This document shows, piece after piece, positions 4,967-32,940 of a stretch of 45,862 nt of DNA; position 1 is the stretch's first letter, and each line of letters begins with the position of its first letter. The stretch lies in NCBI GenBank assembly GCA_043808545.1, contig JAZDEU010000020.1, positions 1 through 45,862 on the forward strand. The letters run 5' to 3'. Below the pieces are notes generated by a model. The model had not been told where the DNA came from and did no database searches. It worked only from the letters and a program-made list of their open reading frames with translations. Position numbers and translations under genes: made by a program. Source of the DNA: a bacterium. Lineage in GTDB: Bacteria; Patescibacteriota; Patescibacteriia; JAZDEU01.

Positions 4967-4978
4967 TAAATTAGCATA

Positions 4979-5557
4979 TTATAATTTAGTGATAATTTTG
5001 TCTAACTGTTTGTATAATTCTTTTTCACTCCCGTTATTGTCTATAATAAAATCCGCGGTTTTTCCGATTTTTGGAATCTCGCTCTCTACTTTGCTTTTTT
5101 CGTCTCGCTTGAACTGGGCAAGAGTTTTTTTATTGTCATCGGAATTTTCTCTGCGTTTTTTTATCCTTTCAAGGCGGATATCAATATTAGCCGTTACATA
5201 AATTAGTTTGAAATTTTTTAGTTTTTTAAGATATAGAAGCTCGGGTGATCTTCTTATTCCGTCTATTATGATTAGATTGCGCCTATCTTTTTTTGCATCC
5301 TCGCATAAGACTTTTGAAAATAAATCATTACCAAAAGATTTTCTTAGAGCTTTGGATAAAGTTTGGATATTTTCTCTTGATTGCTCTATATATAATCGAT
5401 CTAAAATATCCCGTAACATTGTTGAAAATCGGTAATAACTCGCGTTATATTTTTTAATTAAGTATTTGCATGATGTCCCTTTGCCTCCAGCGAGTTCTCC
5501 GACGAAACCTAAGATTATTTTTTTATTTTGCATATAAATTTTATTATATCTTGACAT
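4979..5557 (-). CDS. P-loop nucleotide/nucleoside kinase-like protein (CoaE / dNMP-kinase-like)
   Basis: Walker-A-like GELAGGKGT at the N-terminus, IIIDGIR Walker-B-like strand, about 190 aa. Its context next to ndk/folA/thyA suggests a nucleotide kinase. Confidence 0.45.
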   Translation of the reverse strand: MSRYNKIYMQNKKIILGFVGELAGGKGTSCKYLIKKYNASYYRFSTMLRDILDRLYIEQSRENIQTLSKALRKSFGNDLFSKVLCEDAKKDRRNLIIIDGIRRSPELLYLKKLKNFKLIYVTANIDIRLERIKKRRENSDDNKKTLAQFKRDEKSKVESEIPKIGKTADFIIDNNGSEKELYKQLDKIITKL

Positions 5558-5649
5558 TTTTATGAAAATTTGGTTAGATTATAGGATATCTTGCTCTTTA
5601 CAGGGTTTTTCTCACATAACAGTAACCCTTTTTATAGGAGGATAAGGCA

Positions 5650-6093
5650 TTGGGAAAAGAAAGGACACTGGTAATTATTAAGCCCCATATTTTTTTGGAT
5701 AACGACGCGCAAAAAGTTAGTTTAATAATTGGGGATATTTTGCGCAGATATTTAGAACGTAGGTTGTCAGTTGTCGCCGTGAATTCGTTTTGTATGGATC
5801 GTGATGCAGTGGCAGGATTTTATCAAGAACACAATGGGCGGCCGTTCTTTAATGATTTAATAAATGCAATGATTGCAGCTCCAAGTTTTTTCATTGTTTT
5901 AGAAGGAGAATACGCTGTTCAGAAGGTGCGCAGTATCAACGGAGCAACAAATCCATTGGAAGCCGCGCAAGGGACATTGCGGCGGGATTATGGGCGGATG
6001 GAAAAGGGACCGAATAATGCAGTTCACGGATCCGATTCAGTAGAAAGCGCAGAAAGGGAAATAGCATGTTTTTTTCCTGAATTAGCTAGGTAA
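5650..6093 (+). CDS. ndk: nucleoside diphosphate kinase
   Basis: TLVIIKPH and NAVHGSDS (catalytic His) motifs. TTG start 8 nt after a rare perfect AGGAGG. Confidence 0.85.
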   Translation: MGKERTLVIIKPHIFLDNDAQKVSLIIGDILRRYLERRLSVVAVNSFCMDRDAVAGFYQEHNGRPFFNDLINAMIAAPSFFIVLEGEYAVQKVRSINGATNPLEAAQGTLRRDYGRMEKGPNNAVHGSDSVESAEREIACFFPELAR

Positions 6094-6116
6094 TTTTTCC
6101 TCACATTTTTTTATCC

Positions 6117-6155
6117 AAGGGGATTGCTTACAAAAAGCTTTCCCCTTATTTTTTT
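6117..6155 (+). terminator. rho-independent terminator after ndk
   Basis: AAGGGGA ... TCCCCTT stem followed by ATTTTTTT. Confidence 0.55.
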
Positions 6156-6171
6156 ATAATTACGTGTAAAA

Positions 6172-6212
6172 ATCCCCCTAACCCCCTTTTATAAAGGGGG
6201 AACTATGGGGAT
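6172..6212. repeat. nested GC-rich hairpin (ATCCCC..CCCCCTTT tat AAAGGGGG..GGGGAT) abutting the folA stop codon
   Basis: Read directly. Same C5/G5 hairpin style as the elements at 14683-14707 and 33106-33128. Probably a bidirectional terminator. Confidence 0.6.
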
Positions 6213-6713
6213 TTATCTCCCCAATTCCACAAATTTATATTTTAATCCATTATATTCGTGTTTTTCTTCGCTTAATATATTTTTAAATTCAGTGTAATCT
6301 GGGAAGAAAGTGTCTGCGTCTTTTGGGGAATCTTCAACAATCGTTAAATATAATTTATCCGCGCAGGGAATCGCTTGGCGGTAAATTTCCCCTCCTCCGA
6401 TTACGAAAATTTCTGGCGGCGCGCTGATTGTAGAGACGCATTGCAATGCGTCTCTACTAATCTGTATCGCCTCATCAAGCGAATTGCAAATATGGCATCC
6501 TTCGGCTTTATAATTTTTATCTCTTGTAATTATAATATTAACTCTATTTGGGAGCGATTTACCGATTGATTCAAAAGTTTTTCTGCCCATTATTACGGGA
6601 TGATTTTCTGTTATTTTTTTAAAATGCTTTAAATCATCTGGAATATTCCAGATTAGTTTATTATTTTTACCAATAGCATTATTTTCCCCTAAAATACAAA
6701 TAACATTTATCAT
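6213..6713 (-). CDS. folA: dihydrofolate reductase
   Basis: IGKNNKLIWNIPDDLKHFKKIT..PVIMGRKTFESIG and VIGGGEIY are collinear with E. coli FolA. It carries an extra ~10-aa loop (SRDALQCVST) encoded by the palindrome. Confidence 0.85.
   Translation of the reverse strand: MINVICILGENNAIGKNNKLIWNIPDDLKHFKKITENHPVIMGRKTFESIGKSLPNRVNIIITRDKNYKAEGCHICNSLDEAIQISRDALQCVSTISAPPEIFVIGGGEIYRQAIPCADKLYLTIVEDSPKDADTFFPDYTEFKNILSEEKHEYNGLKYKFVELGR
6430..6457. repeat. 28-bp perfect palindrome GTAGAGACGCATTGCAATGCGTCTCTAC embedded in frame in folA
   Basis: Read directly. It has the same 11-bp arms as 1151-1178 but a different 6-bp centre, and is read in a different frame (RDALQCVST). Confidence 0.9.
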
Positions 6714-6801
6714 ATTTTTGTAGAATAGGTATTTTTTAGAATTAGAAATTAAAAATTGTTTTAAAATTTAAAATTTAAAATTTAAAATTCCCCAAGGTGT
6801 T

Positions 6802-7791
6802 TTAGTATCCTCCGATATTTGCGATTTCAGCTTTTATTGCCGGATGCGGGTCATAGCCTTCAAGTGTAAAGTCTTCATAAGTAAAGTCATCAATATTTTT
6901 TATTTCAGGATTTAATTTCATCGTCGGGAACGGTTTAGGTTCGCGGCTTAATTGTTCGTTGATTTGATCAAAATGGTTGCTATAAATATGCACATCTCCG
7001 AATGTGTGGACAAATTCTCCTATTTCAAGCCCGGTGACTTGCGCTACCATCATAAGAAGTAATGCGTAGCTGGCAATATTAAATGGAACACCTAAGAATA
7101 AATCAGCGCTTCGTTGGTACAGACCTAAATTCAATTTTCCATCTGTGACAGCGAATTGATAAGTTGTATGGCAAAAAGGCGGAACTTCATTTTTATTTTT
7201 TTCTGAAGCCATCGCGTAAATAAAATCAGGATTCCACGCGGAAACGACATAAGATTTTCTATAAGGTTTTTCTTTCAATCCTTGAATTACCCATCCTAAT
7301 TGATCTATTTCTCGTCCGTCGCTTGCTGGCCATCTTCTCCACATTCTGCCATAAATCGTTATAAGATCGCCCCATTTTTTTACAAATTCACTGTCAGTCT
7401 GTTCTTCTTTAATCTTATTTATAAAATATTCCTGCGTCATATCTTTTTCAGGATCGTTTTTCACGCAATGTTTATGATATCTTTTCCATGCCCATTCATC
7501 CCATATATGAACATTCTTATCAACTAAATATTTTATATTAGAATCACCTTTTAAAAACCATAATAATTCTTCAATAATTCCTCGGATAAATACTTTTTTT
7601 GTCGTAAGTAAAGGAAATCCTTTTGTTAAATCAAATCTGATCTGTCGTCCGAAAACGCTTCTTATGAACGGCGGTTCTACGCCTCTCGTTGCATATTGTT
7701 TTAATACCTCAGGCGTGAAAAAAAGTTTTTTATCCGAGCCGTTGTCTTTTATGTCTTTTGCTAAGTTTAGATATTGGTATTCTGGGTGCAT
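6802..7791 (-). CDS. thyA: thymidylate synthase (ThyA type)
   Basis: [31 protein letters not shown] and DVHIY motifs. At 329 aa it carries a ~50-aa insert after IWDEWA, at the position of the L. casei-type small domain. Confidence 0.9.
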
Positions 7792-13326: not shown

Positions 13327-14295
13327 ATGTCAAGATTAAAAAATTTTATTAAAATCGTAATAACGCAAAATTTAGGATTGTCAAAAGAACATATTGAACG
13401 GTTGAAATGTTTAGGGAAAGTAAAAATTTATAATGATTTAGCTAAAAATGCGGAAGAATGGTTAAATCGTTGTAATGGATCGGATATAATATGCACAGGA
13501 AAATTCGGATTAAAAACGAAAATTTATGAGTTAAAAAATGTGTTTTTTGTTTTGCCTTTTGTCTGTGTCGGTTTTTTGGATACAGGAAAACTTAGAGAAA
13601 GAAATATAACAGTTTCATATTGCCCGGGATGCAATAAAGACGCGGTTTCAGAGTGGATAATAGGAATGATAATAAATTTATTAAGAGATTTGCCGCATTT
13701 GATAAATAATAAAACTTTATCAAAAGGAAAAATTCCAGAAGCAAATATCGGGCTTACAGAAAAGAGAGTGGTTATACTGGGGAAAGGAAATATCGGTTCG
13801 CGCGCAGGGAAAATTTGCAAGGCGCTTGATATGGATGTGAATTATTTTCAAAGAAGCGGCAATTTAGCAGAGTGTGTTAAAAGTGCGGATATAATAATTA
13901 ATGCGTTAAGTTTAAATCCATCTTCAGTCAGGTTATTAGATGGAAATTTTTTTAAGGCGCTTTAAAAAGGCTCTTTTTTTATTACAGTTACCAATCCTGA
14001 AATTTATGATACGGATGCGATGCTTGAGGCATTAGATAATGGCACATTAGCAGGGGTTGCGTGCGACGCTGGCGGAATACAAGTCGGGGATGTTTATGAT
14101 CCTTATTATAAAAAATTATTACGGCATCAGAAAATTTTAGCAACTCCGCATATAGCCTATAAAACGGATGCGACCAATAAAACAGGAAATGATATGATGA
14201 TAAATAATATAGAAGCGTGGATAAAAGGAAAACCGATAAATATATGTCAAGAACTCAAAAAGAAATTAAAAATTTTATTAAAAATTGGAAATTAG
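13327..14295 (+). pseudogene. D-isomer-specific 2-hydroxyacid dehydrogenase family gene interrupted by an in-frame TAA (13963-13965)
   Basis: ORFs 13327-13965 and 14020-14295 are in the same frame. NAD fold VVILGKGNIGSRAG; C-terminal TPHIAYKT. The expected catalytic Arg region reads VTNPEIYD. Confidence 0.6.
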
Positions 14296-16205
14296 AAATT
14301 AGAAATTATTGCTTATTAGTATTGTGCATTGCATTATTTTGTTTGTGCGGGCATTTTGTCATCGCCGCTGAGATGGCGAATCCCATTTATTCAATTCGCA
14401 TAGACGAGGAGACGATTAAGAAGGGATATGATATTAAGGGATTTGATGATAATTTTCAAGTCGCTGTTTTTCCGTTTGTTTTAAAAACTCCGACGAGGAT
14501 TGAATTAAAAAACAGAACGGAGATTGCGAAGAGTGAAAATGTGAATAAATTGGAGGCGGCTGGGAATGAAGATAACGCGGATGTGATAAATAATATTTCT
14601 ACAACTACGAATGATGTTATTTATTCTTCCAGTACTGATTTTATCGCATCATCTACGGAGCAACTGGAAGTTGAAAATAACACCCCCCTTGCCACCCTCA
14701 AGGGGGGGACAATTTTATTATTAGGCGAAAATCCAGACGGCTGGGAAATAAACAGCGATATTTATGAATTTGATGTCCGAGATAAAGATGCTTATGATGG
14801 TAAGAAACCTTTTATTGTGTCAATAAGATATGATGATAATGTTGATTTAAGTATTAACACCTCCCCTTCGGCAAGCTCCCGCCAAAAGGGCGGGCAGGCA
14901 GAGCAGGCTCTTGCCACCCTCAAGGGTGGATTTCATTTAAACAGAAAAAAAATATTTTATTTTGACAGCGGGAGGAATGAGTGGATTCCTTTGCCTTCAA
15001 CGATAATGTACGGAGATAATTTGGTGAGAGCTGTAATTCAGCTTTCTTATGCAAAACTTGCAGTGTTTGAAAATGATGGCATTCTTAGCATTGGCGAGGC
15101 GAGCTGGTATAAATATAAAGGGTGCAACTGCGCGGCAAGTCCTGATTATCCAAAGGGAACAAAGCTGAAAGTAACAAATCTTTATAATGATAAGTCCGTA
15201 ATTGCTGTAGTGAATGATTATGGACCAGAGAGGGATATATTTCCCGATCGCGTTGCTGATCTTGATCTTGAAGCGTTTTCTAAAATCGCAAAAAAGGGCG
15301 TGGGAGTGATTGATGTAAAAGTTGAGCCGTTAGATGAAATTTGTTCTTATGCTTTTGAAAAAGCGAAACATCCAGAAACGCCAGCTCCTGAAATTAGCGC
15401 GCCTTTTGCCATTGTGATAGATGAGCCGACTGGGGAGGTTCTTTATAAAAAAGGCGAAGATAAAAAAGTTCCGATTGCGAGCATTAGCAAATTGATGACT
15501 GCGAGTGTGTTCTTGAGTGTGATGCGTAATTCGTCAGGGTCCCTTTCAGGAGACTCTGACGGGACATCTCGCGCCACACTCAAGGGGGGAACTAATGTCC
15601 AGCTTAATGGATGGAATAAAATAATTACCTACAATAAAGCCGATGATTTAGACGGCGCGAAATTATATGTGAATGATGGTGAAACGATGACTATCAAAGA
15701 TATTTTTTATTCTATGCTTGTCGGTTCTGCAAATAATGCCGCGAAAACTTTGGTAAGGAATTCTGGAATTGGATATAATGATTTTGTGGAAGAGATGAAT
15801 AAAAAAGCTAAAGAGTGGAAATTAAATAATACAGAGTTTAAAGATCCGACAGGTCTTAACACAGAGAATGTCAGCACTGCGTTAGATGTTGCTAATATGG
15901 CGCGGCAGGCGTTAAAAGATTTTGAGATGTTAAAAGCCACAACTATATCTCAATATTCATTTAAAACGATAAATACAGGCAATGCGCATATTGTGAAAAA
16001 CACAGATAATCTTCTTCTTGATAAAGATTTATATATAACCGGAGCAAAAACTGGATTTTTGAATGAAGCGGGATATTGTCTTGTTTTAAAAGCAAAAAAT
16101 AAAAATGATGGCAGAGAAGTAATCGCTGTTGTTTTGGGAGAGTCCAGTTCTGAGGCGCGGTTTGATGATATAAAAAAATTGGCGCAGTGGGGATTGGGGG
16201 AGTAG
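14244..16205 (+). CDS. secreted fusion protein: RlpA-like DPBB domain + serine-type D-Ala-D-Ala carboxypeptidase (peptidase S11)
   Basis: TM/signal segment; GEASWYKYKGCNCAASPDYPKGTKLKVTNL..VIAVVNDYGPE (RlpA/DPBB); SxxK (ASISK), SxN (SANN), KTG (KTGF). The track start at 14217 overlaps the upstream pseudogene, so the ATG at 14244 is preferred. Confidence 0.75.
   Translation: MSRTQKEIKNFIKNWKLEIRNYCLLVLCIALFCLCGHFVIAAEMANPIYSIRIDEETIKKGYDIKGFDDNFQVAVFPFVLKTPTRIELKNRTEIAKSENVNKLEAAGNEDNADVINNISTTTNDVIYSSSTDFIASSTEQLEVENNTPLATLKGGTILLLGENPDGWEINSDIYEFDVRDKDAYDGKKPFIVSIRYDDNVDLSINTSPSASSRQKGGQAEQALATLKGGFHLNRKKIFYFDSGRNEWIPLPSTIMYGDNLVRAVIQLSYAKLAVFENDGILSIGEASWYKYKGCNCAASPDYPKGTKLKVTNLYNDKSVIAVVNDYGPERDIFPDRVADLDLEAFSKIAKKGVGVIDVKVEPLDEICSYAFEKAKHPETPAPEISAPFAIVIDEPTGEVLYKKGEDKKVPIASISKLMTASVFLSVMRNSSGSLSGDSDGTSRATLKGGTNVQLNGWNKIITYNKADDLDGAKLYVNDGETMTIKDIFYSMLVGSANNAAKTLVRNSGIGYNDFVEEMNKKAKEWKLNNTEFKDPTGLNTENVSTALDVANMARQALKDFEMLKATTISQYSFKTINTGNAHIVKNTDNLLLDKDLYITGAKTGFLNEAGYCLVLKAKNKNDGREVIAVVLGESSSEARFDDIKKLAQWGLGE
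14683..14707. repeat. GC-rich hairpin CCCCCCTTG-ccaccct-CAAGGGGGG inside the CDS (encodes PLATLKGG)
   Basis: Read directly. Decayed copies at about 14909-14927 and 15573-15589 also encode ATLKGG. Confidence 0.8.
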
Positions 16206-16300: not shown

Positions 16301-17968
16301 ATGACTAAAAAATATGTTTTTGTCGTGGGAGGGGTTATGTCGTCGGTTGGCAAAGGTGTTGCAGCGGCCTCAATCGGAAAAATAATTCAATCAAAAGGGT
16401 ACAGTGTGGCGAATATAAAATGCGATATGTATGTAAATATAGACGCAGGCACTATTCGTCCGGCGGAACATGGAGAGGTTTTTGTCGGAGAAGACGGGGT
16501 TGAGGCGGATCAGGATTTAGGTAATTATGAAAGATTCACAGACCAAATTTGCGCTCGCGATAATTATATAACTACTGGGCAAGTTTATCAGGAAGTAATT
16601 AGAAGAGAAAGAAATTTAGAATATGAAGGAGAAGATGTAGAGGTTGTTCCAGATATCCCAAAGGAAATTATAAGAAGGATAAAGTTATGTCAGAAAAAAA
16701 ATAATTCAGAGGTTACTATTGTTGAGCTTGGGGGGACGGTTGGAGAATATCAAGTTTTATTGTTTTTAGAAGCGGCGCGTATGATGAAAATGGAAAAGCC
16801 GAAAGATGTTTATTTTATTTTAGTAAGTTATCTCCCGACCCCGGGTCTTTTAGGCGAACAAAAATCAAAACCGACGCAATATGCGATAAGAACTTTGAAT
16901 TCTGCTGGAATTATGCCAGATTTTATATTGTGCAGGGCGACGAAACCAGTTAGTGATTCAATTAAAAATACTATAAGCACAGTTTGCAGTTTGCCGAAAG
17001 CGCATATTATTTCCGCGCCTGATGTATATTCAATTTATGATATTCCTGTTAATTTTGAAAAAGAAAATTTTGGCGATGTGATTTTAAAAACAATGGGGTT
17101 AAAATCGCAAAAAAAGGATTTGCGCGATTGGACGAATTTTTCAAATAAAATAAAATTAATTAATAAGGAGATCGCGATAGGCATTGTAGGGAAATATTTT
17201 AATTTTAAATCATGCAGAGATACATATATTTCTGTGATTGAATCTATAAATCACGCTTGCTGGCATAATAATATTAAGGCTGAAATTTTATGGCTTGATT
17301 CGGAAAATTACGAAAAAGATAAGAAAAATTTAAAAGAATTAGATAAAGTTGACGGAATTATTGTTCCGGGAGGATTTGGAAAAAGGGGAACTGAAGGCAT
17401 GATTTTAGCGGCGCAGTATGCGATGGATAATAAAATTCCGTATTTTGGATTATGTTTAGGGATGCAAATTTTAAGCATAGCTTTTACTCGTAAAGCTTTG
17501 GGGTTAAAAGACGCTAATTCAACCGAATTAAATCCAGCCACAAAAAATCCTGTTATATCAACAATGGCTGAGCAAAAAAATAATATAGAAAATAAAAATT
17601 ATGGCGGTACGATGAGGCTAGGCGCGTATCCTGCAAAACTTAAAAAAGATTCTTTAAGCTATAAAGCTTACGGTAAAATAGATATTTCAGAGAGGCATCG
17701 CCATAGATATGAGTTTAATAATGTGTATCGCGAAAGACTAGAAAAAAAAGGATTGAAAATAGCTGGAGTTAATCCAGACAGGGATTTAGTTGAAATTGTT
17801 GAAGTTGAAAATCATCCTTGGATGGTTGGAGTTCAGTTTCATCCTGAATTTAAGTCTCGTCCATTAAATCCGCATCCGCTTTTTAGAGAGTTTATTAAAG
17901 CGGCTGTTAAAGAAAAAAAAGGGGGGAATAATTATGAAAAAAAATCTGCAAAAAATAAAAAGATGTAA
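16301..17968 (+). CDS. pyrG: CTP synthase
   Basis: N-terminal VVGGVMSSVGKGVAAASIG; glutaminase domain GLCLGMQ and HRHRYEFN. Confidence 0.9.
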   Translation: MTKKYVFVVGGVMSSVGKGVAAASIGKIIQSKGYSVANIKCDMYVNIDAGTIRPAEHGEVFVGEDGVEADQDLGNYERFTDQICARDNYITTGQVYQEVIRRERNLEYEGEDVEVVPDIPKEIIRRIKLCQKKNNSEVTIVELGGTVGEYQVLLFLEAARMMKMEKPKDVYFILVSYLPTPGLLGEQKSKPTQYAIRTLNSAGIMPDFILCRATKPVSDSIKNTISTVCSLPKAHIISAPDVYSIYDIPVNFEKENFGDVILKTMGLKSQKKDLRDWTNFSNKIKLINKEIAIGIVGKYFNFKSCRDTYISVIESINHACWHNNIKAEILWLDSENYEKDKKNLKELDKVDGIIVPGGFGKRGTEGMILAAQYAMDNKIPYFGLCLGMQILSIAFTRKALGLKDANSTELNPATKNPVISTMAEQKNNIENKNYGGTMRLGAYPAKLKKDSLSYKAYGKIDISERHRHRYEFNNVYRERLEKKGLKIAGVNPDRDLVEIVEVENHPWMVGVQFHPEFKSRPLNPHPLFREFIKAAVKEKKGGNNYEKKSAKNKKM

Positions 17969-18356
17969 TTCTTTTAAACGGCTTGGCAATAATAGAATTG
18001 TTTTGTTGTATCTTTTTGGATCAGTTGCGCGCGGGACGGCGCATAAAGAGAGCGACATTGATATAGGGGTTTTATTTGATAATAAAACTAAGAAAAGCGA
18101 ATATTTGCGTTTAGAAGGCAGGATAATAGAATTTTTTTCTAACTTGTATCATAGCAAGGAAATAAATGTGGTGAATTTTAATATTTCCAGTCCGCTTTTG
18201 AAGCAAGTGGCGATTTTGGAAGGAAAATTATTATACAAACGGAGCGATGAGGATAGAATATTTTTTGAGATTAACATACTAAGGGAATATGAGGAATATT
18301 CCCACTTGTCTAAAATATATAATAAGTTTTTAAATGTAAAATTAAAAGCATTATGA
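17934..18356 (+). CDS. mntA: MNT-type nucleotidyltransferase antitoxin (type VII TA)
   Basis: LFGSVARGTAHKESDIDIGVL (GSX10DXD). It overlaps hepT by 4 nt and pyrG by 35 nt. Confidence 0.75.
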   Translation: MKKNLQKIKRCNSFKRLGNNRIVLLYLFGSVARGTAHKESDIDIGVLFDNKTKKSEYLRLEGRIIEFFSNLYHSKEINVVNFNISSPLLKQVAILEGKLLYKRSDEDRIFFEINILREYEEYSHLSKIYNKFLNVKLKAL

Positions 18357-18775
18357 CAAAAATTATAAAAGAACAATTTGATGATAAAGTTGATAATTTG
18401 GTAAAAATCTATGGAGGATTAAAAAAACTCCAGAGGTTGAAATTAAAAGATTTTAAAGAGAATATAGAAAATGTTTGGGCAGTTGCTTTCGGCGTGGTCG
18501 CTGGGATTGAAGCAATGCTGGATATTAGCCAGTATATCCTTTCTAGCAAAGGAATAAAGGCGGAAAGTTATGGAAGTATTCCTGAAAAATTATTGGAAGC
18601 AAAAGTTATAAATAAGGTATTTTCAACGAAAATGCGCGATATGATTGGCTTTAGAAATCGCGCTATTCACAATTATCCTTCTTTAGATGAAACATTACTG
18701 TATAAGGTTTTGCAAAATGATGTTGAGGATTTTAAGAAATTTTTGAAGATTGCGGAGAAATATAGGGATATGTGA
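18353..18775 (+). CDS. hepT: HEPN-domain toxin HepT (DUF86)
   Basis: RNRAIHNY matches the RX4HXY HEPN motif. 140 aa, translationally coupled to mntA. Confidence 0.75.
   Translation: MTKIIKEQFDDKVDNLVKIYGGLKKLQRLKLKDFKENIENVWAVAFGVVAGIEAMLDISQYILSSKGIKAESYGSIPEKLLEAKVINKVFSTKMRDMIGFRNRAIHNYPSLDETLLYKVLQNDVEDFKKFLKIAEKYRDM
18725..18763 (+). repeat. 39-bp direct repeat, copy 1 (native hepT 3' end)
   Basis: GAGGATTTTAAGAAATTTTTGAAGATTGCGGAGAAATAT, identical to 21170-21208. Confidence 0.95.
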
Positions 18776-18835
18776 TATAATTATTTTTTATTTTAAATAT
18801 GTATTTATAATGAAGAAATTAAACAAATTCAATCT

Positions 18836-19795
18836 ATGCTAAAACAAATTCAACTAAAACTTTCTAAAATTAAATACACAGGAGATTCCGTCGGGGATGA
18901 TATACAGATTGAAATAGAAGCCTTGGATAAATTTTTAGGTTCAAACAAAAAATTAAAACGCGGGACAGAAAGAGAGCTTGACGAAGCTGTCGGAATATTT
19001 TTTGTCGATGGCGCGTCCTTCACATTGCCGGTAAATATTAAAATCATTGAGCGTGATTTGATTTTTAACGATGCTGGGAGCAAAAAAGTGAATTTAAAAG
19101 TTGATTTAAAAAGCGATTCTCCGCAAAGCAGTGTTTACAAAATTGAAGTTCAAGAACTGCGGAATTTTATTAACAAAAAGAAGGCTGTTTTTGAGGTGAC
19201 GGTGGAGGCGGTGGTGTCAAATGCGATTGTGTATGTTCATCGCGGTGGCACAGACAACTGGCTCAATGCTTCACCTGACAATTCCAAAGAAATAATCAAT
19301 TTACCATTATATTTAAAAGTGCAATTAGAGCGAACTGAAAATAAGCGGCAATATTTTAAAATTATGGAGGGCGTGTTACTGGGCGTTAGAGCTTCGGTAA
19401 AACTTGATAATGACGGAACATCATATTTCGGAAACGAAAATTCGCATACAGCGCCTGTGTCTATCACTTATTCCATATCCAAGAAAACTGCGCGGTTTAG
19501 AAATAAAGTTTATAAGACGATAGATTATCCAGACAGTCCATGGGAAAAAGGATTTTATGACATAGAAATTCCAGATCATTCTCATGAAGGCGGACATCAT
19601 TACCCAGAATCAAAGTTAGCCACAGTATGGTTTAGAATTGGTCACGATGGCAAGCGTTATTTTCATCCAGGAAAGTATTCGCTCGGATGCATGACTCTTA
19701 CAGAAATTCACCGTTGGGATGAATTATGCGCAATTTTAATAAAAGCGCGCAAGGGCGATGGCAGGAGTATTGGTACTTTAGAGGTGATTGATTAA
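18836..19795 (+). CDS. hypothetical protein with an L,D-transpeptidase-fold / Tlde1(DUF2778)-like C-terminal domain
   Basis: No signal peptide. The C-terminus GFYDIEIP...VWFRIGHDGKRYFHPGKYSLGCMTLTE...LCAIL...GTLEV resembles the His...SxGC catalytic core and the trailing pattern of Tlde1-type domains. By-eye call. Confidence 0.4.
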   Translation: MLKQIQLKLSKIKYTGDSVGDDIQIEIEALDKFLGSNKKLKRGTERELDEAVGIFFVDGASFTLPVNIKIIERDLIFNDAGSKKVNLKVDLKSDSPQSSVYKIEVQELRNFINKKKAVFEVTVEAVVSNAIVYVHRGGTDNWLNASPDNSKEIINLPLYLKVQLERTENKRQYFKIMEGVLLGVRASVKLDNDGTSYFGNENSHTAPVSITYSISKKTARFRNKVYKTIDYPDSPWEKGFYDIEIPDHSHEGGHHYPESKLATVWFRIGHDGKRYFHPGKYSLGCMTLTEIHRWDELCAILIKARKGDGRSIGTLEVID

Positions 19796-19819
19796 ATTAT
19801 TAAAAAATCAAAAATATTT

Positions 19820-21154
19820 ATGAATGAAATTTATAAGCTAATAGATTGGTTATTTGAATTTTATAAAAATAAAATAATTTTTTCTCGACAAATTACTTGT
19901 AGTCTTAGTAAAGAAAAATATGATGTGCGAGTTGAAAATAATAGAATTGTCCCATATTGTCCATATATTAGAGAAGGAGATAAATGTGAAGTGCCTATCA
20001 CAAGCGCCGATGGCGTGGATAAACAAAATAAGAAGAGAACATTACGAGGTAATAAGGGAAAATGCTATATTGCTAATAAAAAACATTATGGCGCTATTTG
20101 TTTTTTGTTAATAATATTATTTTTTGTAATTTTTTTATTATTTCTTGTGTTTATTAAAGAGCGAAAAGTTAAAAGTCCACAAGGTGATTCCGCCCATAAG
20201 GTTATTGGCAAAAGCGAAGAAATCATTCAAGGAGTTAGCTACTTCAATCGTCAAACAGAACCATTAAAACTTGGACAGCTTAAAATAGGCGGGGAAATGC
20301 CTGGCGGACCTGGCGATACTACATTCGCCCCCTACATGAAAATACCAATATCAAAATTTTATGTAAGCGTTATGGAACCGAATAGTTGGTGCATAAACGA
20401 GGATTGCAATCTTGATGGAGCATTTATTCAAACAATGGGAGGATGGCTTGAAGTAAACCATACTGGAGATCCGACTTTAGATGAATTTTATGGACTTGAT
20501 TTACCCGAAAATAAAAACATAAAATCACTTGTTTTAATAGGCGATAGGGACGGGAAAATCGTGGGAATTTATCCTAGCAGGGGATTAGATGATGTTATTC
20601 CTATTCTAAAACTGCATCCTGATTTGGCGGATTTTAATCTTTTGAAAGGGGTTGACGAATTTGGCTCGTTCAAAATCGGGGAACTCGCGCCATTAAAGCC
20701 TGGCGATTCTATTATTCATCTATCAGATAAATTGGTTAAATTTTCACCAAATATTCCAAAAGATAAAAAGTTTTACCTATATGCTTTGCAAAAAAGAAAA
20801 TATAAAGAAGTTGGAATGTATAATGGAATGTATGAAGCTTATGAAAATAAGTATATATGCTCGCTATCTGGTTGCCGATACCCAGAGCCAGATCCGCCAC
20901 ATGATTTTTTATATGCTGATATAGATGAACTTGGCGGTTGGTTTTTGAGCAATGATCAGAGTAATTCGGAAATGGTTAAATTATTTGGTCTTGACCAAGA
21001 AGAAGTGCTGGCAGGAAAATCCTCATTGGTTATTTTAACGGATTCAAAAGGCGTGATCCGAGCTATCCATCCGAATAAGACGATGAGCGATGCTTTAACA
21101 ATTTTAAGCCAGCATCCTGATTTGGCGGATGTTGTGGGATGGTATGGAAGATAA
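19820..21154 (+). CDS. single-pass membrane protein with two tandem homologous extracytoplasmic domains (thioredoxin-fold-like, Cx4C, HPDLAD)
   Basis: TM helix AICFLLIILFFVIFLLFLVFI. Repeat 1 (~aa 150-275) and repeat 2 (~aa 285-440) share KxGxL, KFY, Cx4C, GGW, (Y/F)GLD, SLV..D..G.I..I.P and HPDLAD. Confidence 0.4.
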   Translation: MNEIYKLIDWLFEFYKNKIIFSRQITCSLSKEKYDVRVENNRIVPYCPYIREGDKCEVPITSADGVDKQNKKRTLRGNKGKCYIANKKHYGAICFLLIILFFVIFLLFLVFIKERKVKSPQGDSAHKVIGKSEEIIQGVSYFNRQTEPLKLGQLKIGGEMPGGPGDTTFAPYMKIPISKFYVSVMEPNSWCINEDCNLDGAFIQTMGGWLEVNHTGDPTLDEFYGLDLPENKNIKSLVLIGDRDGKIVGIYPSRGLDDVIPILKLHPDLADFNLLKGVDEFGSFKIGELAPLKPGDSIIHLSDKLVKFSPNIPKDKKFYLYALQKRKYKEVGMYNGMYEAYENKYICSLSGCRYPEPDPPHDFLYADIDELGGWFLSNDQSNSEMVKLFGLDQEEVLAGKSSLVILTDSKGVIRAIHPNKTMSDALTILSQHPDLADVVGWYGR

Positions 21155-21169
21155 AATGACAGTAATGGC

Positions 21170-21208
21170 GAGGATTTTAAGAAATTTTTGAAGATTGCGG
21201 AGAAATAT
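21170..21208 (+). repeat. 39-bp direct repeat, copy 2 (hepT 3'-end remnant reading EDFKKFLKIAEKYEI*)
   Basis: Base-for-base identical to 18725-18763. Its end overlaps the ATG at 21207 of the next gene. Confidence 0.95.
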
Positions 21209-21587
21209 GAAATTTAAAATGCCTTTTATGATTTATCTTATCGGCGGTCCGCCGAGATGCGGAAAAACAACTTTAGCGAAAGAGATGTCTAAGAAGCTAA
21301 AAATTCCGTGGATTTCCTCGGATGCTTTGGAAGTGGTGAGCAGGGAGTATGTAAGCAAAGAGAAACGGATAAAATTATATCCTTATTCTTTTTTACGAAA
21401 AAAAGGTGTTAATAGAAATAATGATGAATTTTATAGTAAATACTCCGCGCGAGAAATTATAAATGTTTTAAAAAAGCAAGCAAAAACAAGTTTTAGAGCT
21501 ATTGATATGATGATTGCGAATGAGATTGATAATGGCAATGATTATATAATTGAAGGTTATCATATATTGCCAAGTTTGCGGAGCTGA
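21207..21587 (+). CDS. P-loop NTPase / kinase-like protein, apparently 3'-truncated
   Basis: Walker A GGPPRCGKTTLA; it ends at IIEGYHILPSLRS*, where related ~190-aa kinases continue. The track's TTG at 21195 lies inside the repeat, so the ATG at 21207 is preferred. Confidence 0.4.
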   Translation: MKFKMPFMIYLIGGPPRCGKTTLAKEMSKKLKIPWISSDALEVVSREYVSKEKRIKLYPYSFLRKKGVNRNNDEFYSKYSAREIINVLKKQAKTSFRAIDMMIANEIDNGNDYIIEGYHILPSLRS

Positions 21588-21658
21588 AAGTATATGAAGA
21601 AACTTGCAGGGAAAGTATGAAAAAAGTTACGGGATAAATTTATAAAAAATATTGCAGT

Positions 21659-23477: not shown

Positions 23478-24362
23478 ATGTTATTTAATATTTTATTATC
23501 TTTATTATTTAAAATTAACAATATAACTTTAAAGAATTTTGATAGCGCCCAAAATTTTAGAGTGGAGCGATCAGAGGTTAAAAATATTGGTGTAAAAATT
23601 GATGCAAAAAGCGGAATAGTAATAGACGCGGATAATGGAGATATGATATTTGCGAAAAATGAAAATGAAGTATTGCCGATTGCGAGTATTTCAAAACTAA
23701 TAAGCGCATTAGTTTTTTTAGATTATAATCATGGATGGGATGAGAAAATAAAAATTATCGCGGATGATTATAGGATTGGAGGAAAACTTTATGTGGCTTC
23801 CGGAGAAGTTGTCACTGTCCGAGATTTATTCTATACGAGTTTGGTGGGATCTGCTAATAACACGACTGTTGCGCTCGCGCGTTCAACTGGTATGACTTTA
23901 GAAGAATTTACTGGTAAAATGAATGAAAAGGCAAAAGAACTTGGAATGGACAACGCATATTTTGAAGAGCCGACAGGATTAAGCGAAAAGAATGTTGCGA
24001 CTGCAAAAGAAGTCGCAATCTTAGCGCAAGCGGCATACAGCAACGAATATATAAAAAAAGCGCTTCAAACCGATGAACACATTTTTTATACAGTGGACAA
24101 GAAACGAATTCATAAAATAAAAAATACGGATAAGTTGCTTGGCAGTTTTTTGAATGAGAACGGTTATGAAATTGTCGGCGCAAAAACAGGATATACGGAA
24201 GAGGCGATGTATTGTCTCGCGCTAGGCGTGGAAAATGGATATGGACAGAGTGTCATTTCCGTGATTTTAGGAGCTGATACGGAAGCAAATCGTTTTCAAG
24301 AAGCAAAAAGTTTAGCGTGGTGGGGGCTCACTCAAGAAAACAAAAAAACAATAAAACAATAA
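23478..24362 (+). CDS. D-alanyl-D-alanine carboxypeptidase (peptidase S11)
   Basis: ASISK, SANN and KTGY motifs. Paralog of the C-terminal half of 14244-16205. Confidence 0.8.
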   Translation: MLFNILLSLLFKINNITLKNFDSAQNFRVERSEVKNIGVKIDAKSGIVIDADNGDMIFAKNENEVLPIASISKLISALVFLDYNHGWDEKIKIIADDYRIGGKLYVASGEVVTVRDLFYTSLVGSANNTTVALARSTGMTLEEFTGKMNEKAKELGMDNAYFEEPTGLSEKNVATAKEVAILAQAAYSNEYIKKALQTDEHIFYTVDKKRIHKIKNTDKLLGSFLNENGYEIVGAKTGYTEEAMYCLALGVENGYGQSVISVILGADTEANRFQEAKSLAWWGLTQENKKTIKQ

Positions 24363-29703: not shown

Positions 29704-32700
29704 ATGTCTTTATTTAGAAAAACGAAAGAAATGGCGGTTCAAAAAGAAAAAGAATTTGAACCGCAAGAGCAAAAAGCTGATGAAGCTGTTGAGTTTTTAG
29801 ATCCAAGCGAGATAAGAAAGCAATATGACAGAGATATTGATCTTTTGATGTCAGCAAAAAACAAAGAATATATGGAGAGCATAAATGAAGATGAAGGAGC
29901 GCAGATAGATAAGAGGATTGCGAATATGGGAGAGCGTTTAGGATTTGGGGATGAGTTAGATAGAAAAAGAAATGGTGTTATGAATATATTCAGGAAAGTT
30001 TTTGGAGTTAAAGAGAAAAAAACAAAAGATGAGATAATTCTAGATAAGACGGGTAAAATAAGAGATGACGCGGAAGCATGGGTTAAGCGCGATTTGTATT
30101 TTGAGAAAGCGGAGAAAACGCGGCTAGAGCGGGAGAAAGAAGAATCTGCGTTAGCAACTAAAGGAAAAAATATTGCTAAAGTAATTGGTGGTTTAGGAAA
30201 GACAGTCGCAGAGGCTGGCGCGGCGTTTAAGGCAAGCCATATTTTAGTGTCATCCGGGTTAGCTATGGCTGGCGCGGGAGTTGCGGCAAGCGGAGCAGGG
30301 GCGGCAGTCGGATCTTTCGCGTTAGCTGGCGGAGCGCTTTATGGCGGAAAGAAAATGGCTAGTTGGGTAAAAGAGAAATGGAGAGAGCATAAGTATATGC
30401 AGGATGAGTTAGATTATGAGAATAAGTTTATTCAAGAAAGATTAAAACAAAGAACATCTGAACTAATGAGCATAGAATTGATGGATAAGCAGGACGCGGG
30501 AAGAGTGAAAGAAGATAAAAAATACGAGGGCATGAGAAAGCAATATATTACTGGGAAGATTGATGATAATGAATGGAATGAATTTTTAATGAATAGGGCA
30601 GGGGAATCAATAAAACAATGGGCAGAGGGAAAAGAAGGGATAGATGTAAAATACACGGAAAGAGAAATAAAGGATATGGGTGTTGCGGCGGCTGTTTTGG
30701 GGAAGACAGAGGAAAAATTAGATGGAAAAGTTGAGAGAAAATTATTTGACATAGCGAGAAGCAATCCGGCTTTGTTTAAAAAGATAAGCAATGAAAATAC
30801 ATTTAAAACAATGGGTAAAGAATATCTTAATGAATTAAAGGGTTTAGTTTTGTTTCAAATTCCGATTGTTCGTTTAGCTTTAACTGGCGCCGGCGGATGG
30901 GAGCTTGGAAATCAAGTAATAGACATAGCTTTTGAGGGCAATGAATGGTATGAACAAAATAAATATGGCTTGCGTACTTTAACGAAATCTATAGCAGGCA
31001 TTGGCGGAGTGGCGGCTTTGTTTTATGTTTTTTCGCAAGAAGTGGATGGGAGTAAAATTAAAGGGTTAGTTCAGGAGTTTAGGAATGATTGGGGGAAAGT
31101 CGGGAAAATAATAGAGACGCTTTCTCCGGGTAAAGCTGAGGCGGCGGAGATAGAATATCAGACGCCGCAAGTCAAAGATTCTAATGTTGTTAAGGCGCTT
31201 AGTAGTAAAGGGAAGTCAATAGAAGATTTTCATACAGAAGGAAAAATAAACATTGTAAAAGGAGATAATTTATGGAAAATTGCGCAAGAAATGCAACCGC
31301 CAGCGTCTAATAATATTAAAACGCTTCTTGGCGCAGAACTTGCGCCAAAAAACATTAAAGGCGTTGCTCCAAATGTTGCGTTAGATGCAGGGAAAAAGAT
31401 TCAAATAGACGCGATCAAGGATTTTTTAGTTAATAAATATAAACAGCAATATCCGGGAGCTAACCCTGATGTAATTAAACCGGGGCAGAAAATAGATTTT
31501 AGTCCAAAGGAATTAACAGAATATCTTACAAAAAAAGGCGGCGTTGTTGAGAAAGTGCAAAATTTAACTCCGAAGCAAGCTATGGAAGCCGCAGGCGGAA
31601 AATATGATGTTAAGCCTATTAAAAAAGCGGTGGCGGTTGAGAAAGTGAAGAATGTTAAAGAGGTAAAAAGTGCGGAGATTAAAGAGAAGGTGAAAATTGA
31701 AAAGAAGGCGGATGCGCAACAAAAGACAAAAGAAGGACAGGCGCAAGAAGTCAGTAAAGATTCTAAAATAGAAGATAATAGCGATATAAATAAGAGAATA
31801 GCTGATAATGATTATGTGAGTCAGGCAGAGTGGGAGCAAGCTCATACCATAGCTTCGCCGCAAGAATACGCGGATTATATGGAAAAGGTTCCTTTGGCGA
31901 AGAGAGTAGGAAAAGGGATGGAGAAATTAAAGTTGCCGCAAGATAAGATAGAGCTTGAATATGTAAAAAAGATTGAAGGTATAGCAGAAAAATTTACGAC
32001 GGAGCAAAGAAAATTAGGCGCGGTCAAAGAATTGGAAAACAGAATAAATAGATTAGATGGTAATGCGAATAAAGAGACTATTGAAGATCATATTTTATTT
32101 TTATCGCAGTCTGGCGCAGAAAGAGATGTTTTTAATTTAAAATTAAATAGCGCGATAGAGCTGAGAAGCGTTCTGCAGAAACGGCTTAATGTTTCGCCCG
32201 AAGCGATTGGCAGACTAGAAGCGATTTCATCCACAAAAGACGGAATGGTTTTAACGCCGGAAGGTATTTTGGGACATCCTAAAATATATTTATCTGAAAA
32301 TTATGAAATTACAAAAGTAGAAAATGCAGGATATGTTTATGAATCTTCGCGCGACCAATTGAGCAGTTTCAGAGATTGGAAAAAAAGAATCTTAAGACAG
32401 GATAATAGCGTGAAATGGAATCAGTTTCTAGACTATATAGTTATAAAGGGAAATGTTTCAGAAACGAATATGCGCTATGTAAATAGTCCGGAGAAGGTGA
32501 ATTTTGTAATATATTTAGTTGAGCATAATTCTTTTAATAATGTAGAAGCTAGTTCGCGTTTAGGAGATTGCTTAAAGTTGCTTGATAGCCGTCCGTCTTT
32601 AAACTTTTTGCAGAAATTTAATTTTGCGAGAATTATATTAAACCCGAAAAATGCGGAAGTGTCAAAAGATTTTATTACGAGTTTTGGGTTTAGTGAACCA

Positions 32701-32940
32701 AAAGATATAAAGATTAAAGTAAAAGGGGATAGGATTACAATACCGGGCGTGGAGCTTAATGGTAATAAATTTAATTTGCATTTTGATACAAAGACTGGGG
32801 AATTTATTGATCCATGGTTTTTTGGTTTAGGGGACAAAAGATTTAAAAATCCATCTGAATTTTTGAATTATTTAGGAGAGCATATTAAGCATAAGACAGG
32901 GCATTTTTCATATTTGAAAAAGCGGGGGCGGCGGGGGTAG
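29704..32940 (+). CDS. large hypothetical membrane-associated protein with a Gly/Ala-zipper segment and a LysM-like module
   Basis: GGLGKTVAEAGAAF...AMAGAGVAASGAGAAVGSFALAGGALYGG hydrophobic block; a second hydrophobic pair near aa 385-450; INIVKGDNLWKIAQEM...IKPGQKIDF is LysM-like. Confidence 0.5.
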   Translation: MSLFRKTKEMAVQKEKEFEPQEQKADEAVEFLDPSEIRKQYDRDIDLLMSAKNKEYMESINEDEGAQIDKRIANMGERLGFGDELDRKRNGVMNIFRKVFGVKEKKTKDEIILDKTGKIRDDAEAWVKRDLYFEKAEKTRLEREKEESALATKGKNIAKVIGGLGKTVAEAGAAFKASHILVSSGLAMAGAGVAASGAGAAVGSFALAGGALYGGKKMASWVKEKWREHKYMQDELDYENKFIQERLKQRTSELMSIELMDKQDAGRVKEDKKYEGMRKQYITGKIDDNEWNEFLMNRAGESIKQWAEGKEGIDVKYTEREIKDMGVAAAVLGKTEEKLDGKVERKLFDIARSNPALFKKISNENTFKTMGKEYLNELKGLVLFQIPIVRLALTGAGGWELGNQVIDIAFEGNEWYEQNKYGLRTLTKSIAGIGGVAALFYVFSQEVDGSKIKGLVQEFRNDWGKVGKIIETLSPGKAEAAEIEYQTPQVKDSNVVKALSSKGKSIEDFHTEGKINIVKGDNLWKIAQEMQPPASNNIKTLLGAELAPKNIKGVAPNVALDAGKKIQIDAIKDFLVNKYKQQYPGANPDVIKPGQKIDFSPKELTEYLTKKGGVVEKVQNLTPKQAMEAAGGKYDVKPIKKAVAVEKVKNVKEVKSAEIKEKVKIEKKADAQQKTKEGQAQEVSKDSKIEDNSDINKRIADNDYVSQAEWEQAHTIASPQEYADYMEKVPLAKRVGKGMEKLKLPQDKIELEYVKKIEGIAEKFTTEQRKLGAVKELENRINRLDGNANKETIEDHILFLSQSGAERDVFNLKLNSAIELRSVLQKRLNVSPEAIGRLEAISSTKDGMVLTPEGILGHPKIYLSENYEITKVENAGYVYESSRDQLSSFRDWKKRILRQDNSVKWNQFLDYIVIKGNVSETNMRYVNSPEKVNFVIYLVEHNSFNNVEASSRLGDCLKLLDSRPSLNFLQKFNFARIILNPKNAEVSKDFITSFGFSEPKDIKIKVKGDRITIPGVELNGNKFNLHFDTKTGEFIDPWFFGLGDKRFKNPSEFLNYLGEHIKHKTGHFSYLKKRGRRG

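Follow-up and report, generated by a model that had tools for sequence, protein, structure and literature searches.

A candidate mobile cassette for a wall-directed effector and its immunity protein at the 3′ end of hepT in Patescibacteria

The window analysed here, a 45,862-nt stretch of DNA (JAZDEU010000020.1) from a candidate-phyla-radiation-type bacterium, raises a simple question: why is the 3′ end of a toxin gene, hepT, present twice, and what is encoded by the 2.4-kb segment between the two copies, which consists of two open reading frames (ORF1 and ORF2)? Comparison with related contigs confirmed that the segment is an insertion at the 3′ end of hepT. As to its function, sequence comparisons lead us to favour, with moderate confidence, a mobile cassette that would encode a wall-directed effector together with its immunity protein. 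In that case the cassette points to a putative, previously undescribed cell-wall weapon in Patescibacteria, related to the Tlde1 enzymes. The latter (Tlde1a/b/c; PF10908, formerly DUF2778) are L,D-carboxypeptidase/transpeptidase effectors of type VI secretion and are counteracted by Tldi1 immunity proteins. To our knowledge, episymbiotic ultra-small bacteria lack the type VI machinery that normally delivers such enzymes, and few candidate effectors are known for the breaching or remodelling of envelopes by ultra-small episymbionts.

A two-gene cassette inserted at the 3′ end of hepT

The genes and repeats that define the locus are the following (loci and proteins of related genomes are designated by L and P numbers, respectively).

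17934–18356, plus strand: mntA, nucleotidyltransferase antitoxin of a type VII toxin-antitoxin system, left flank (NF047752 MntA_antitoxin, E-value 9e-23, score 80 with a cut-off of 60; PF18765, E-value 3e-19)
18353–18775, plus strand: hepT, HEPN RNase toxin, intact, with an RNRAIH motif and a C-terminus ending in EKYRDM; its 3′ end is the insertion target (NF047751, E-value 5.6e-24, score 84 with a cut-off of 60; PF01934, E-value 1.1e-22)
18725–18763, plus strand: direct repeat copy 1, 39 bp, inside hepT codons 125–137 (exact match)
18764–18835, plus strand: hepT tail (AGGGATATGTGA) and AT-rich spacer ahead of ORF1 (the same sequence follows the 39-mer at the ORF2–39-mer–ORF1 junction of L081)
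18836–19795, plus strand: ORF1, 319 amino acids
19820–21154, plus strand: ORF2, 444 amino acids, starting 24 nt after ORF1
21170–21208, plus strand: direct repeat copy 2, 39 bp, encoding an end in EKYEI, the C-terminus of the HepT relative P0244 from an empty site; overlaps the ATG of the P-loop gene (alignment)
21207–21587, plus strand: P-loop kinase-like gene (2-phosphoglycerate-kinase-like), 3′-truncated, right flank of the insertion site (NF003259, E-value 2.3e-13, covering only positions 93–204 of 306; the same gene directly follows hepT in L089 and L091)

The flanking genes represent a type VII MntA/HepT pair, since both exceed the equivalog cut-offs and HepT has the Rx4H HEPN motif (RNRAIH). 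The sequence GAGGATTTTAAGAAATTTTTGAAGATTGCGGAGAAATAT forms an exact 39-bp direct repeat with copies at 18725–18763 and 21170–21208, and no third copy is present in the window when up to three mismatches are allowed (0 expected, 100 shuffles). Copy 1 encodes HepT residues 125–137. Read in frame with the stop codon of ORF2, copy 2 translates as EDFKKFLKIAEKYEI followed by a stop, and the ATG at 21207 shares its first two bases with the end of this copy. An earlier note on this DNA, made from the sequence alone, had described a perfect duplication bracketing two co-directional genes 24 nt apart, with a second copy that remains in frame and runs into the next ATG, and in all these respects it was accurate. 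The repeat can be extended to 44 nt at 95% identity (18720–18763 and 21165–21208), with no convincing similarity between the copies further upstream; the weaker similarity that the note had seen there (AAAATGA plus a 6-nt indel) is at the level of AT-rich chance and was dropped.

To find out how this arrangement arose, we retrieved 99 close homologs of HepT and compared the contigs of relatives with the window. Two of them represent the empty site. In L089, mntA and hepT (ending in KYEI) are followed directly by the P-loop gene with a single copy of the repeat; the HepT of this locus (P0244) is 86% identical to that of the window and ends in KIAQKYEI, that is, in the C-terminus encoded by copy 2. 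In L091, a hepT gene ending in KYRDM likewise abuts the P-loop gene with one copy of the repeat, and its product (P0242, 88% identical) ends in KKYRDM, like HepT of the window. The filled site, with the same insert, was found in L088, an independent assembly that matches the window with 99.87% identity over 11.9 kb; the insert is therefore not an assembly artefact. Finally, L081 contains the reciprocal junction, in which the 3′ end of ORF2 is followed by the 39-mer, the hepT-tail sequence AGGGATATGTGA and then ORF1. Over 327 bp it matches both window junctions at 100% identity; the identical stretch begins 140 nt ahead of the ORF2 end, crosses the junction and continues into ORF1, and a further identical stretch covers most of ORF1. 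Outside these stretches L081 diverges from the window by 9–15%, and it is therefore a recombination mosaic.

Thus, empty (L089, L091), filled (window, L088) and reciprocal (L081, ORF2–core–ORF1) junctions, equivalent to attB, attL/attR and attP types, share a common core, which means that the cassette recombines at the 39-bp sequence. The hepT/P-loop junction had been proposed to be ancestral and the ~2.4 kb between the copies to be an insertion, and the empty sites, with hepT abutting the P-loop gene in related genomes as predicted, bear this out. A degenerate form of the repeat was found singly in L081 and at each empty site, and in two copies at the filled site. As far as seen, the 39-mer is not a dispersed multi-copy repeat; exact and degenerate searches of JGI metagenome contigs gave no match. 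The base composition of the insert is not distinguishable from that of its surroundings. Neither ORF1 nor ORF2, the sole genes between the repeats, matches a recombinase in Pfam, NCBIfam or PADLOC scans. The cassette would have entered the 3′ end of hepT by recombination within the 39 bp that now stand at both of its ends, presumably through Campbell-type insertion of a circular or tandem unit; the exchange itself could have proceeded by homologous recombination across the 39 bp or been catalysed by an enzyme supplied in trans.

The tail of hepT looks like a site of recurrent rearrangement, because L090 (531–2400), which encodes the same HepT protein as L091, carries a different cargo after hepT, an AAA_14/DUF4143 ATPase gene. 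This cargo is followed by an imperfect second hepT 3′ end (2321–2359), which is nearer to the window allele than to the hepT of L090 itself. On a larger scale, everything from mntA and hepT through the cassette to the P-loop fragment (17934–21658) forms an island between pyrG and ftsE: in L073 (JAZDNE010000135.1; 2327–2836) pyrG directly abuts ftsE, and a fragment of an ORF1 homolog is located upstream of pyrG. The P-loop fragment amounts to 126 amino acids, and 68 bp at 21578–21645 are 94% identical to the 3′ end of a 714-amino acid gene which precedes an ORF1 homolog elsewhere (L001 2211–2278). Judging from the sequence, the truncated gene and the L001-like segment suggest a patchwork of gene remnants. 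In L081 (1823–3859), a second copy of ORF2 ends after the membrane helix and gives way to unrelated, more GC-rich DNA with an ISL3-family transposase gene; this break could be either an insertion sequence (IS) insertion or an assembly chimera.

ORF1 probably carries a Tlde1/YkuD-type domain

The AlphaFold2 model of ORF1 (predicted local distance difference test score, pLDDT, of 93.8) consists of three parts.

18836–19225, plus strand: residues 1–130, N-terminal beta-sandwich, C2-like by fold (AlphaFold2 model; Foldseek matches to C2 domains with E-values of 4e-5 to 1e-3)
19226–19480, plus strand: residues 131–215, second small beta domain, always accompanied by the catalytic domain in stand-alone (~197 amino acids) and fused relatives (model, relatives)
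19481–19795, plus strand: residues 216–319 and stop, Tlde1/YkuD-type Cys-His domain, with the Cys285 codon at 19688–19690 (hhalign)

The C-terminus of ORF1 had been likened by eye to YkuD-fold enzymes. A Pfam scan of 80 homologs returned Tlde1_dom (PF10908) in 16 cases (best E-value 0.0066) and YkuD (PF03734) in five, the two top families by count; although such matches are weak, they appear specific. We then used hhalign to compare residues 215–319 of the ORF1 family with 16 Tlde1 sequences (Alignment S1 of PMC9638812). The two families aligned over 89 columns with a probability of 95.3, an E-value of 2.1e-8 and a score of 51.8, as compared to at most 20.05 for 40 column shuffles and 9.9 for the reversed alignment. 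The alignment pairs ORF1 residues H277, S282, G284 and C285 with H121, S128, G130 and C131 of Salmonella Tlde1a, the very residues which make up the LD-transpeptidase motif according to the Tlde1a structure paper (PMC9638812). Moreover, four more distant relatives, found with the family profile at E-values below 1e-35, match Tlde1_dom directly (best E-value 1.3e-6), and a Foldseek search of the PDB with the whole model lists the L,D-transpeptidase LdtMt2 (3vyn_B) in 13th place (E-value 2.2e-4).

The putative catalytic residues are well conserved, in keeping with the earlier expectation. Across 80 sequences H277, G279, G284 and C285 never vary, while S282 reaches a conservation of at least 90%, and the motif H-x-G-x2-[ST]-x-G-C (H-x4-S-x-G-C) is found in 63 of 63 full-length homologs. 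Invariant residues are concentrated toward the C-terminus (H250, W265, H270, Y275, H277, G279, G284, C285, W294, R305, K306 and D308). The residue before the motif Gly is Leu in ORF1 and not His as in the published form HXX14-17-(S/T)HGCh. Overall, the resemblance to YkuD/Tlde1 holds at the level of profile-profile comparison, Pfam matches of homologs, relatives and the LdtMt2 model match, whereas ORF1 itself stays below every Pfam threshold (for PF10908 and PF03734, no match at E-value ≤1). We consider it very probable that the C-terminal domain of ORF1 belongs to the Tlde1/YkuD superfamily.

As noted earlier for ORF1, a signal peptide is missing, and neither ORF1 nor its 63 homologs have a hydrophobic N-terminus (first 40 residues; maximum of 1.30 in a 15-residue Kyte-Doolittle window).

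The ORF1 family and its domain architectures

ORF1 has at least 320 homologs at 90% clustering, and exhaustive profile searches detected 752, 524 and 188 representative clusters at E-values of up to 1e-3, 1e-10 and 1e-30, respectively. We found no description of the family in Patescibacteria in the literature. To survey its architectures, we inspected the 150 best representatives and scanned 57 relatives against Pfam. Many of the former are ~197 amino acids long and correspond to ORF1 residues ~130–319 alone; the gene for one of these stand-alone proteins (P0425, 194 amino acids) is followed by one whose product has a signal peptide. In six of the 57 scanned relatives, including P0443, P0446 and P0471, the same module forms the C-terminus of eCIS_core/DUF4157 proteins. 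An N-terminal DUF4157 combined with a C-terminal toxin domain is the signature of extracellular contractile injection system (eCIS) cargo (PMC8213781), and the P0443 locus (L094) indeed encodes AAA, tube, spike and gp25 baseplate proteins. Window ORF1 has no eCIS_core/DUF4157 domain according to Pfam, and there are no injection-system genes in the window. Other fusions join the module with Amidase_3, Hydrolase_2 and Peptidase_C70. The N-terminal domain of ORF1 also recurs in another setting among Patescibacteria-type proteins: P0485 (554 amino acids) combines it (query residues 1–148) with SH3 and an SLT lytic transglycosylase domain (PF01464, E-value 4.6e-17). Taken together, the eCIS cargo and wall-hydrolase fusions support a wall-directed toxin domain with exchangeable delivery parts.

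Two of these proteins have further features. The contractile-injection locus in L094 (124–14731) comprises an AAA ATPase, two eCIS_core proteins, tube, spike and gp25, and the gene for the eCIS_core protein that ends in the ORF1-type module overlaps by 4 nt with the next gene, which encodes a multi-pass membrane protein with an LGT-like domain. P0485 also contains a hydrophobic segment and a further C-terminal region and, like ORF1, is devoid of a signal peptide.

ORF2 and other membrane-anchored partners

The second gene of the cassette can be divided as follows.

19820–20092, plus strand: ORF2 residues 1–91, Cys-containing predicted cytoplasmic head, only in the closest relatives (P0122, P0123, L081); pLDDT <50 for residues 19–88
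20093–20158, plus strand: ORF2 residues ~92–113, transmembrane anchor after a Lys/Arg-rich stretch, predicted N-in, C-out (model helix 90–117; hydropathy maximum of 3.61 from residue 93)
20267–20647, plus strand: ORF2 residues ~150–276, outward-facing repeat A, with C191-x4-C196 at the position of the thioredoxin CxxC (beta-alpha-beta-alpha-beta-beta-alpha model)
20648–21154, plus strand: ORF2 residues 277–444 (C347-x4-C352) and stop, outward-facing repeat B (model, alignment)

Repeat alignment (39% identity over 72 amino acids, E-value 3e-13), hydropathy and the model agree with the previously proposed layout of a Cys-containing head, one transmembrane helix and two homologous outward-facing repeats. 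Most homologs are ~335 or ~175 amino acids long and cover ~66% of the query. C191/C196 and C347/C352 are invariant in 88 homologs, and Foldseek searches with the model gave weak matches only, all to thioredoxin-fold proteins (best E-value 8e-3). None of the 88 family members has a thioredoxin-clan Pfam match, the PDB sequence-profile search with the family returned chance matches only, and ORF2 itself has no usable match in Pfam, NCBIfam or PADLOC and none in PHROG. Tentatively, the repeats may be regarded as thioredoxin-like on the basis of the model, with a Cx4C motif instead of CxxC. The absence of Cx4C from a homologous partner in a HepT-fused lineage (L092, see below) argues against a redox role. 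We also considered a CBS identity, given 30 weak Pfam matches among the 88 homologs, and attributed these matches to a (V/I)(V/I)xDxxGK(I/V)VGI strand-turn motif and not to homology.

Is ORF1 always accompanied by such a protein? We clustered the genes in 80 loci from species-representative genomes, nearly all of them Patescibacteria and one a deltaproteobacterium. In 72 loci of this set, the gene immediately after the ORF1 homolog invariably has the same orientation and in most cases either overlaps it or begins close to its end. This partner resembles ORF2 in 46 loci (mostly single-domain, ~175 amino acids), while nine loci each have partners of families c2 (~247 amino acids) and c4 (~216 amino acids), neither detectably related to ORF2; two further loci have other partners. 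A hydrophobic N-terminal anchor is present in all 62 partners of at least 150 amino acids. Thus, wherever the contig continues, an anchored, predicted outward-facing protein is encoded directly downstream, which is the adjacency and topology expected of an effector/immunity pair. The co-occurrence of the two genes is therefore widespread, as had been surmised, except that the partner is not always ORF2-like, two unrelated anchored families taking its place in 18 of the 72 loci. Outside the pair the flanks vary and are rich in toxin-antitoxin, restriction-modification and transposase genes, with HigB/HigA, type I restriction-modification, AbiEii, NYN and IS200-like genes among the neighbours, and several genomes have two or three copies of ORF1 homologs. 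The c2 family (e.g. L016 3768–4508) shows a weak match to the PdaC domain (E-value 0.0033).

HepT–ORF1 fusions

The proximity of hepT and ORF1 extends beyond the window. In three representative clusters (P0405, P0421 and P0437), a complete HepT-like domain, with Rx4H retained, is fused to a full-length ORF1-like protein. The P0405 fusion is present in two independent assemblies (L092 5001–6913) and is followed by an anchored protein of 172 amino acids without the Cx4C cysteines, which, by sequence profile, is probably homologous to ORF2 (hhalign probability 74, E-value 2.7e-5). The locus of P0437 (L095 763–3103) has an MntA-like nucleotidyltransferase gene directly upstream and a partner-like gene downstream, and L092 carries its fusion without any mntA. 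A tblastn search of the 80 species-representative loci had produced no other HepT or MntA match, and the view that the HepT link is unique to the window, based on that search, was dropped once the fusion proteins were found. Two explanations are conceivable: insertions may favour the 3′ end of hepT as a landing site, with one of them having become fused in frame, or the wall enzyme may cooperate with the RNase. The cassette is located in a MntA/HepT locus as the earlier note had stated, and the fusions in other lineages indicate that this may not be mere parking, as it had put it.

A four-gene block with varied flanks was observed in L041, L046, L051, L054, L057, L058 and L075 (at about 4950–7620). 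It consists of genes for a winged helix-turn-helix (wHTH) nucleotidyltransferase, a 159-amino acid protein (c8) with an RNRIEYG motif, an ORF1 homolog and a 216-amino acid anchored partner. We considered whether the nucleotidyltransferase and c8 are a MNT-HEPN pair and rejected this, as c8 compared with HepT by hhalign gives a probability of 0.9 and matches no PDB chain. The seven c8–ORF1–c4 loci are near-identical copies and therefore do not represent independent evidence.

Proposed function and alternative explanations

By analogy with Tlde1, the target of Cys285 in ORF1 would be the L-centre to D-Ala4 bond in the tetrapeptide stems of peptidoglycan, with His277 acting as the base and Ser282 holding His277. 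The stems would be either trimmed (L,D-carboxypeptidase) or given a wrong D-amino acid, and the wall would be weakened. The ectodomains of ORF2, on the wall side of the membrane, could bind and block ORF1 arriving from outside, thereby providing immunity. A toxin and a conserved partner in different compartments would suggest an inter-cellular effector/immunity arrangement, as opposed to an intracellular toxin-antitoxin. As expected earlier, no type VI genes (VgrG, Hcp, PAAR, adaptors) are encoded in the window, and none were found in the 80 clustered related loci either.

Several observations weigh against this proposal. ORF1 itself has no Tlde1/YkuD match at E-value ≤1 in Pfam, NCBIfam, PADLOC or PHROG, the PDB sequence-profile search with its family alignment gave chance matches only, and C2 domains dominate among the Foldseek matches of the whole model. 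His and Cys are spaced by 8 in ORF1, by 10 in Tlde1a and by 14–17 in the canonical motif. ORF2 is unrelated to known immunity families, and its fold is weakly assigned. In addition, ORF1 has no signal peptide, no secretion system is encoded in the window, and the cassette is devoid of a recombinase gene. The HepT–ORF1 fusions and the contexts in defence islands would be explained no less naturally by an intracellular role.

The last point leads to the main rival, cooperation between the RNase and the wall enzyme. As an enzyme or sensor in the cytoplasm, ORF1 could have its activity coupled to that of the HEPN RNase within an intracellular stress or anti-phage module, with the anchored protein on the membrane side and the four genes forming one system. 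This would account for the three clusters of N-terminal HepT fusions, one of them (P0405) recovered from two assemblies, for the MntA-like gene and partner-like gene that bracket the fusion in L095, for the lack of signal peptides throughout the ORF1 family and for the HigB/HigA, type I restriction-modification, AbiEii and NYN neighbours. Furthermore, there is no terminator-like site between hepT and ORF1 in the window. The partner, however, is located outside the membrane, with only 5–10 cytoplasmic residues in most homologs, and therefore cannot neutralise or signal to a cytoplasmic protein. Nor does the rest of the 80 loci contain a HepT or MntA match, the c8 gene is not detectably a hepT, PADLOC returned no matches, the L092 fusion lacks mntA, and the ORF1-type module is fused to peptidoglycan hydrolases and serves as cargo in a contractile-injection locus. 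We therefore regard an intracellular module as unlikely.

Slightly less likely still, in our view, is a non-toxic accessory enzyme, an L,D-transpeptidase or L,D-carboxypeptidase that remodels the wall of its own cell, with the membrane-anchored protein as adaptor or regulator. The order of beta-sandwiches and catalytic domain resembles the layout of LdtMt2, and the island in the window lies among wall and division genes (two S11 DD-carboxypeptidases, FtsE/FtsX). This neighbourhood is, however, an accident of insertion, as seen from L073, in which pyrG abuts ftsE, and from L089 and L091, in which hepT abuts the P-loop gene. A resident enzyme is also at odds with the missing signal peptide or anchor, with the sporadic, multi-copy distribution in variable contexts and with the use of the module as toxin cargo elsewhere, and a dedicated adaptor is difficult to square with partners from three unrelated families.

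The origin of the repeat might be explained differently, if a second mntA-hepT paralogue had originally occupied the space between ORF2 and the P-loop gene and, after losing most of its sequence, had left the repeat behind as a relic. HepT genes are numerous in these genomes, as the 99 close homologs attest, and the imperfect second hepT 3′ end of L090 does resemble a decayed paralogue. Yet the two copies in the window are identical at 39 of 39 positions and have sharp borders, whereas HepT paralogues differ by 12–20%; L089 and L091 have a single copy of the repeat where hepT meets the P-loop gene; and the reciprocal junction of L081 shows 100% identity with either window junction over 327 bp. 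We find a relic improbable. Finally, a phage-derived lysis pair, in which an endolysin-like wall enzyme is released by a membrane protein, is hardly credible: endolysins typically lack signal peptides and three uncharacterised phage proteins match part of the ORF1 model (E-value ~2e-4), but ORF1, ORF2 and the stand-alone relatives have no PHROG matches, no phage structural genes occur in the loci inspected, and the partner, with one anchor and a large outside domain, is unlike holins.

Returning to the wall-directed effector and immunity protein, the observations can be joined into a broader scenario, which is speculative and which, as a whole, we hold with considerable doubt. Patescibacteria would possess Sec-independent wall weapons, in which the beta-sandwich, shared with the SLT lytic transglycosylase protein, serves as an address tag for an as yet unrecognised route of export or contact-dependent delivery, the Tlde1-like head edits the peptidoglycan of a host or competitor, and anchored partners protect the producing cell. 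From one hepT 3′ end to another, the cassette would travel in circular or tandem form. Some lineages would have merged the wall enzyme with the HEPN RNase into a single two-headed protein, with MntA and the anchored protein as its two antidotes.

Significance and surroundings of the cassette

The family offers a widespread set of candidates (752 representative clusters) with a predicted chemistry, conserved predicted catalytic residues, a candidate N-terminal delivery domain and a partner gene as a built-in control. The natural set of empty, filled and reciprocal junctions shows the movement of a gene cassette at a toxin-antitoxin gene, and through the HepT fusions a possible connection between a cell-wall enzyme and a HEPN RNase toxin becomes amenable to experiment. 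Should ORF1 turn out to be inactive or cytoplasmic, the finding shrinks to an uncharacterised accessory gene pair.

In the window, the region is flanked by two paralogous genes for S11 D-alanyl-D-alanine carboxypeptidases (14217–16205 and 23478–24362), the first of which encodes an extra DPBB (RlpA-like) domain and a long N-terminal extension. Large open reading frames without a Pfam match at E-value ≤1e-5 are located at 29704–32940 (plus strand, 1078 amino acids), 42222–45146 (minus strand, 974 amino acids), 34626–36527 (plus strand, 633 amino acids) and 38496–39935 (plus strand, 479 amino acids).

Comparison with known systems

The closest known system is Tlde1/Tldi1 of type VI secretion. 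The catalytic domains are homologous by profile-profile comparison and share S-x-G-C with an upstream His as well as the G-x-Y-x-I, W-F and y-G-x-l-e-V blocks; like Tlde1b/c, ORF1 is without the insert of the capping subdomain. Both systems encode an extracytoplasmic protein downstream of the effector gene, the location being predicted in the case of ORF2. At the same time, ORF1 is not recognised by the Pfam model, has a His-Cys spacing of 8 versus 10 and possesses ~215 extra N-terminal residues which form two beta domains. Its setting differs as well: there are no type VI genes, the host is of the Patescibacteria type, and the putative effector gene is part of a unit with cassette-like mobility at a toxin-antitoxin gene. 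Unlike Tldi1, its partners are helix-anchored and belong to new families.

With YkuD-type L,D-transpeptidases such as LdtMt2 of M. tuberculosis, ORF1 would share Cys-His chemistry on a common fold; in both, beta-sandwiches precede the catalytic domain, and the ORF1 model matches 3vyn_B in Foldseek (E-value 2.2e-4). ORF1 differs in having neither a signal peptide nor a lipobox, in lacking the arginine of SHGC(I/V)R after the Cys, and in being accessory, mobile and multi-copy rather than housekeeping. As for the eCIS toxins (Geller et al. 2021, PMC8213781), relatives of ORF1 residues ~135–319 form their C-terminal domain, in one case in a contractile-injection locus, whereas the N-terminus of ORF1 itself is a C2-like module in place of eCIS_core and the window has no injection genes. 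Finally, the cassette resembles integrative elements with attL and attR in its exact direct repeat at both ends, in the restored 3′ end of the target and in the set of empty, filled and reciprocal (attP-like or tandem) junctions; in contrast to such elements, it is only 2.4 kb long and encodes no integrase or recombinase, and the exchange may be plain homologous recombination.

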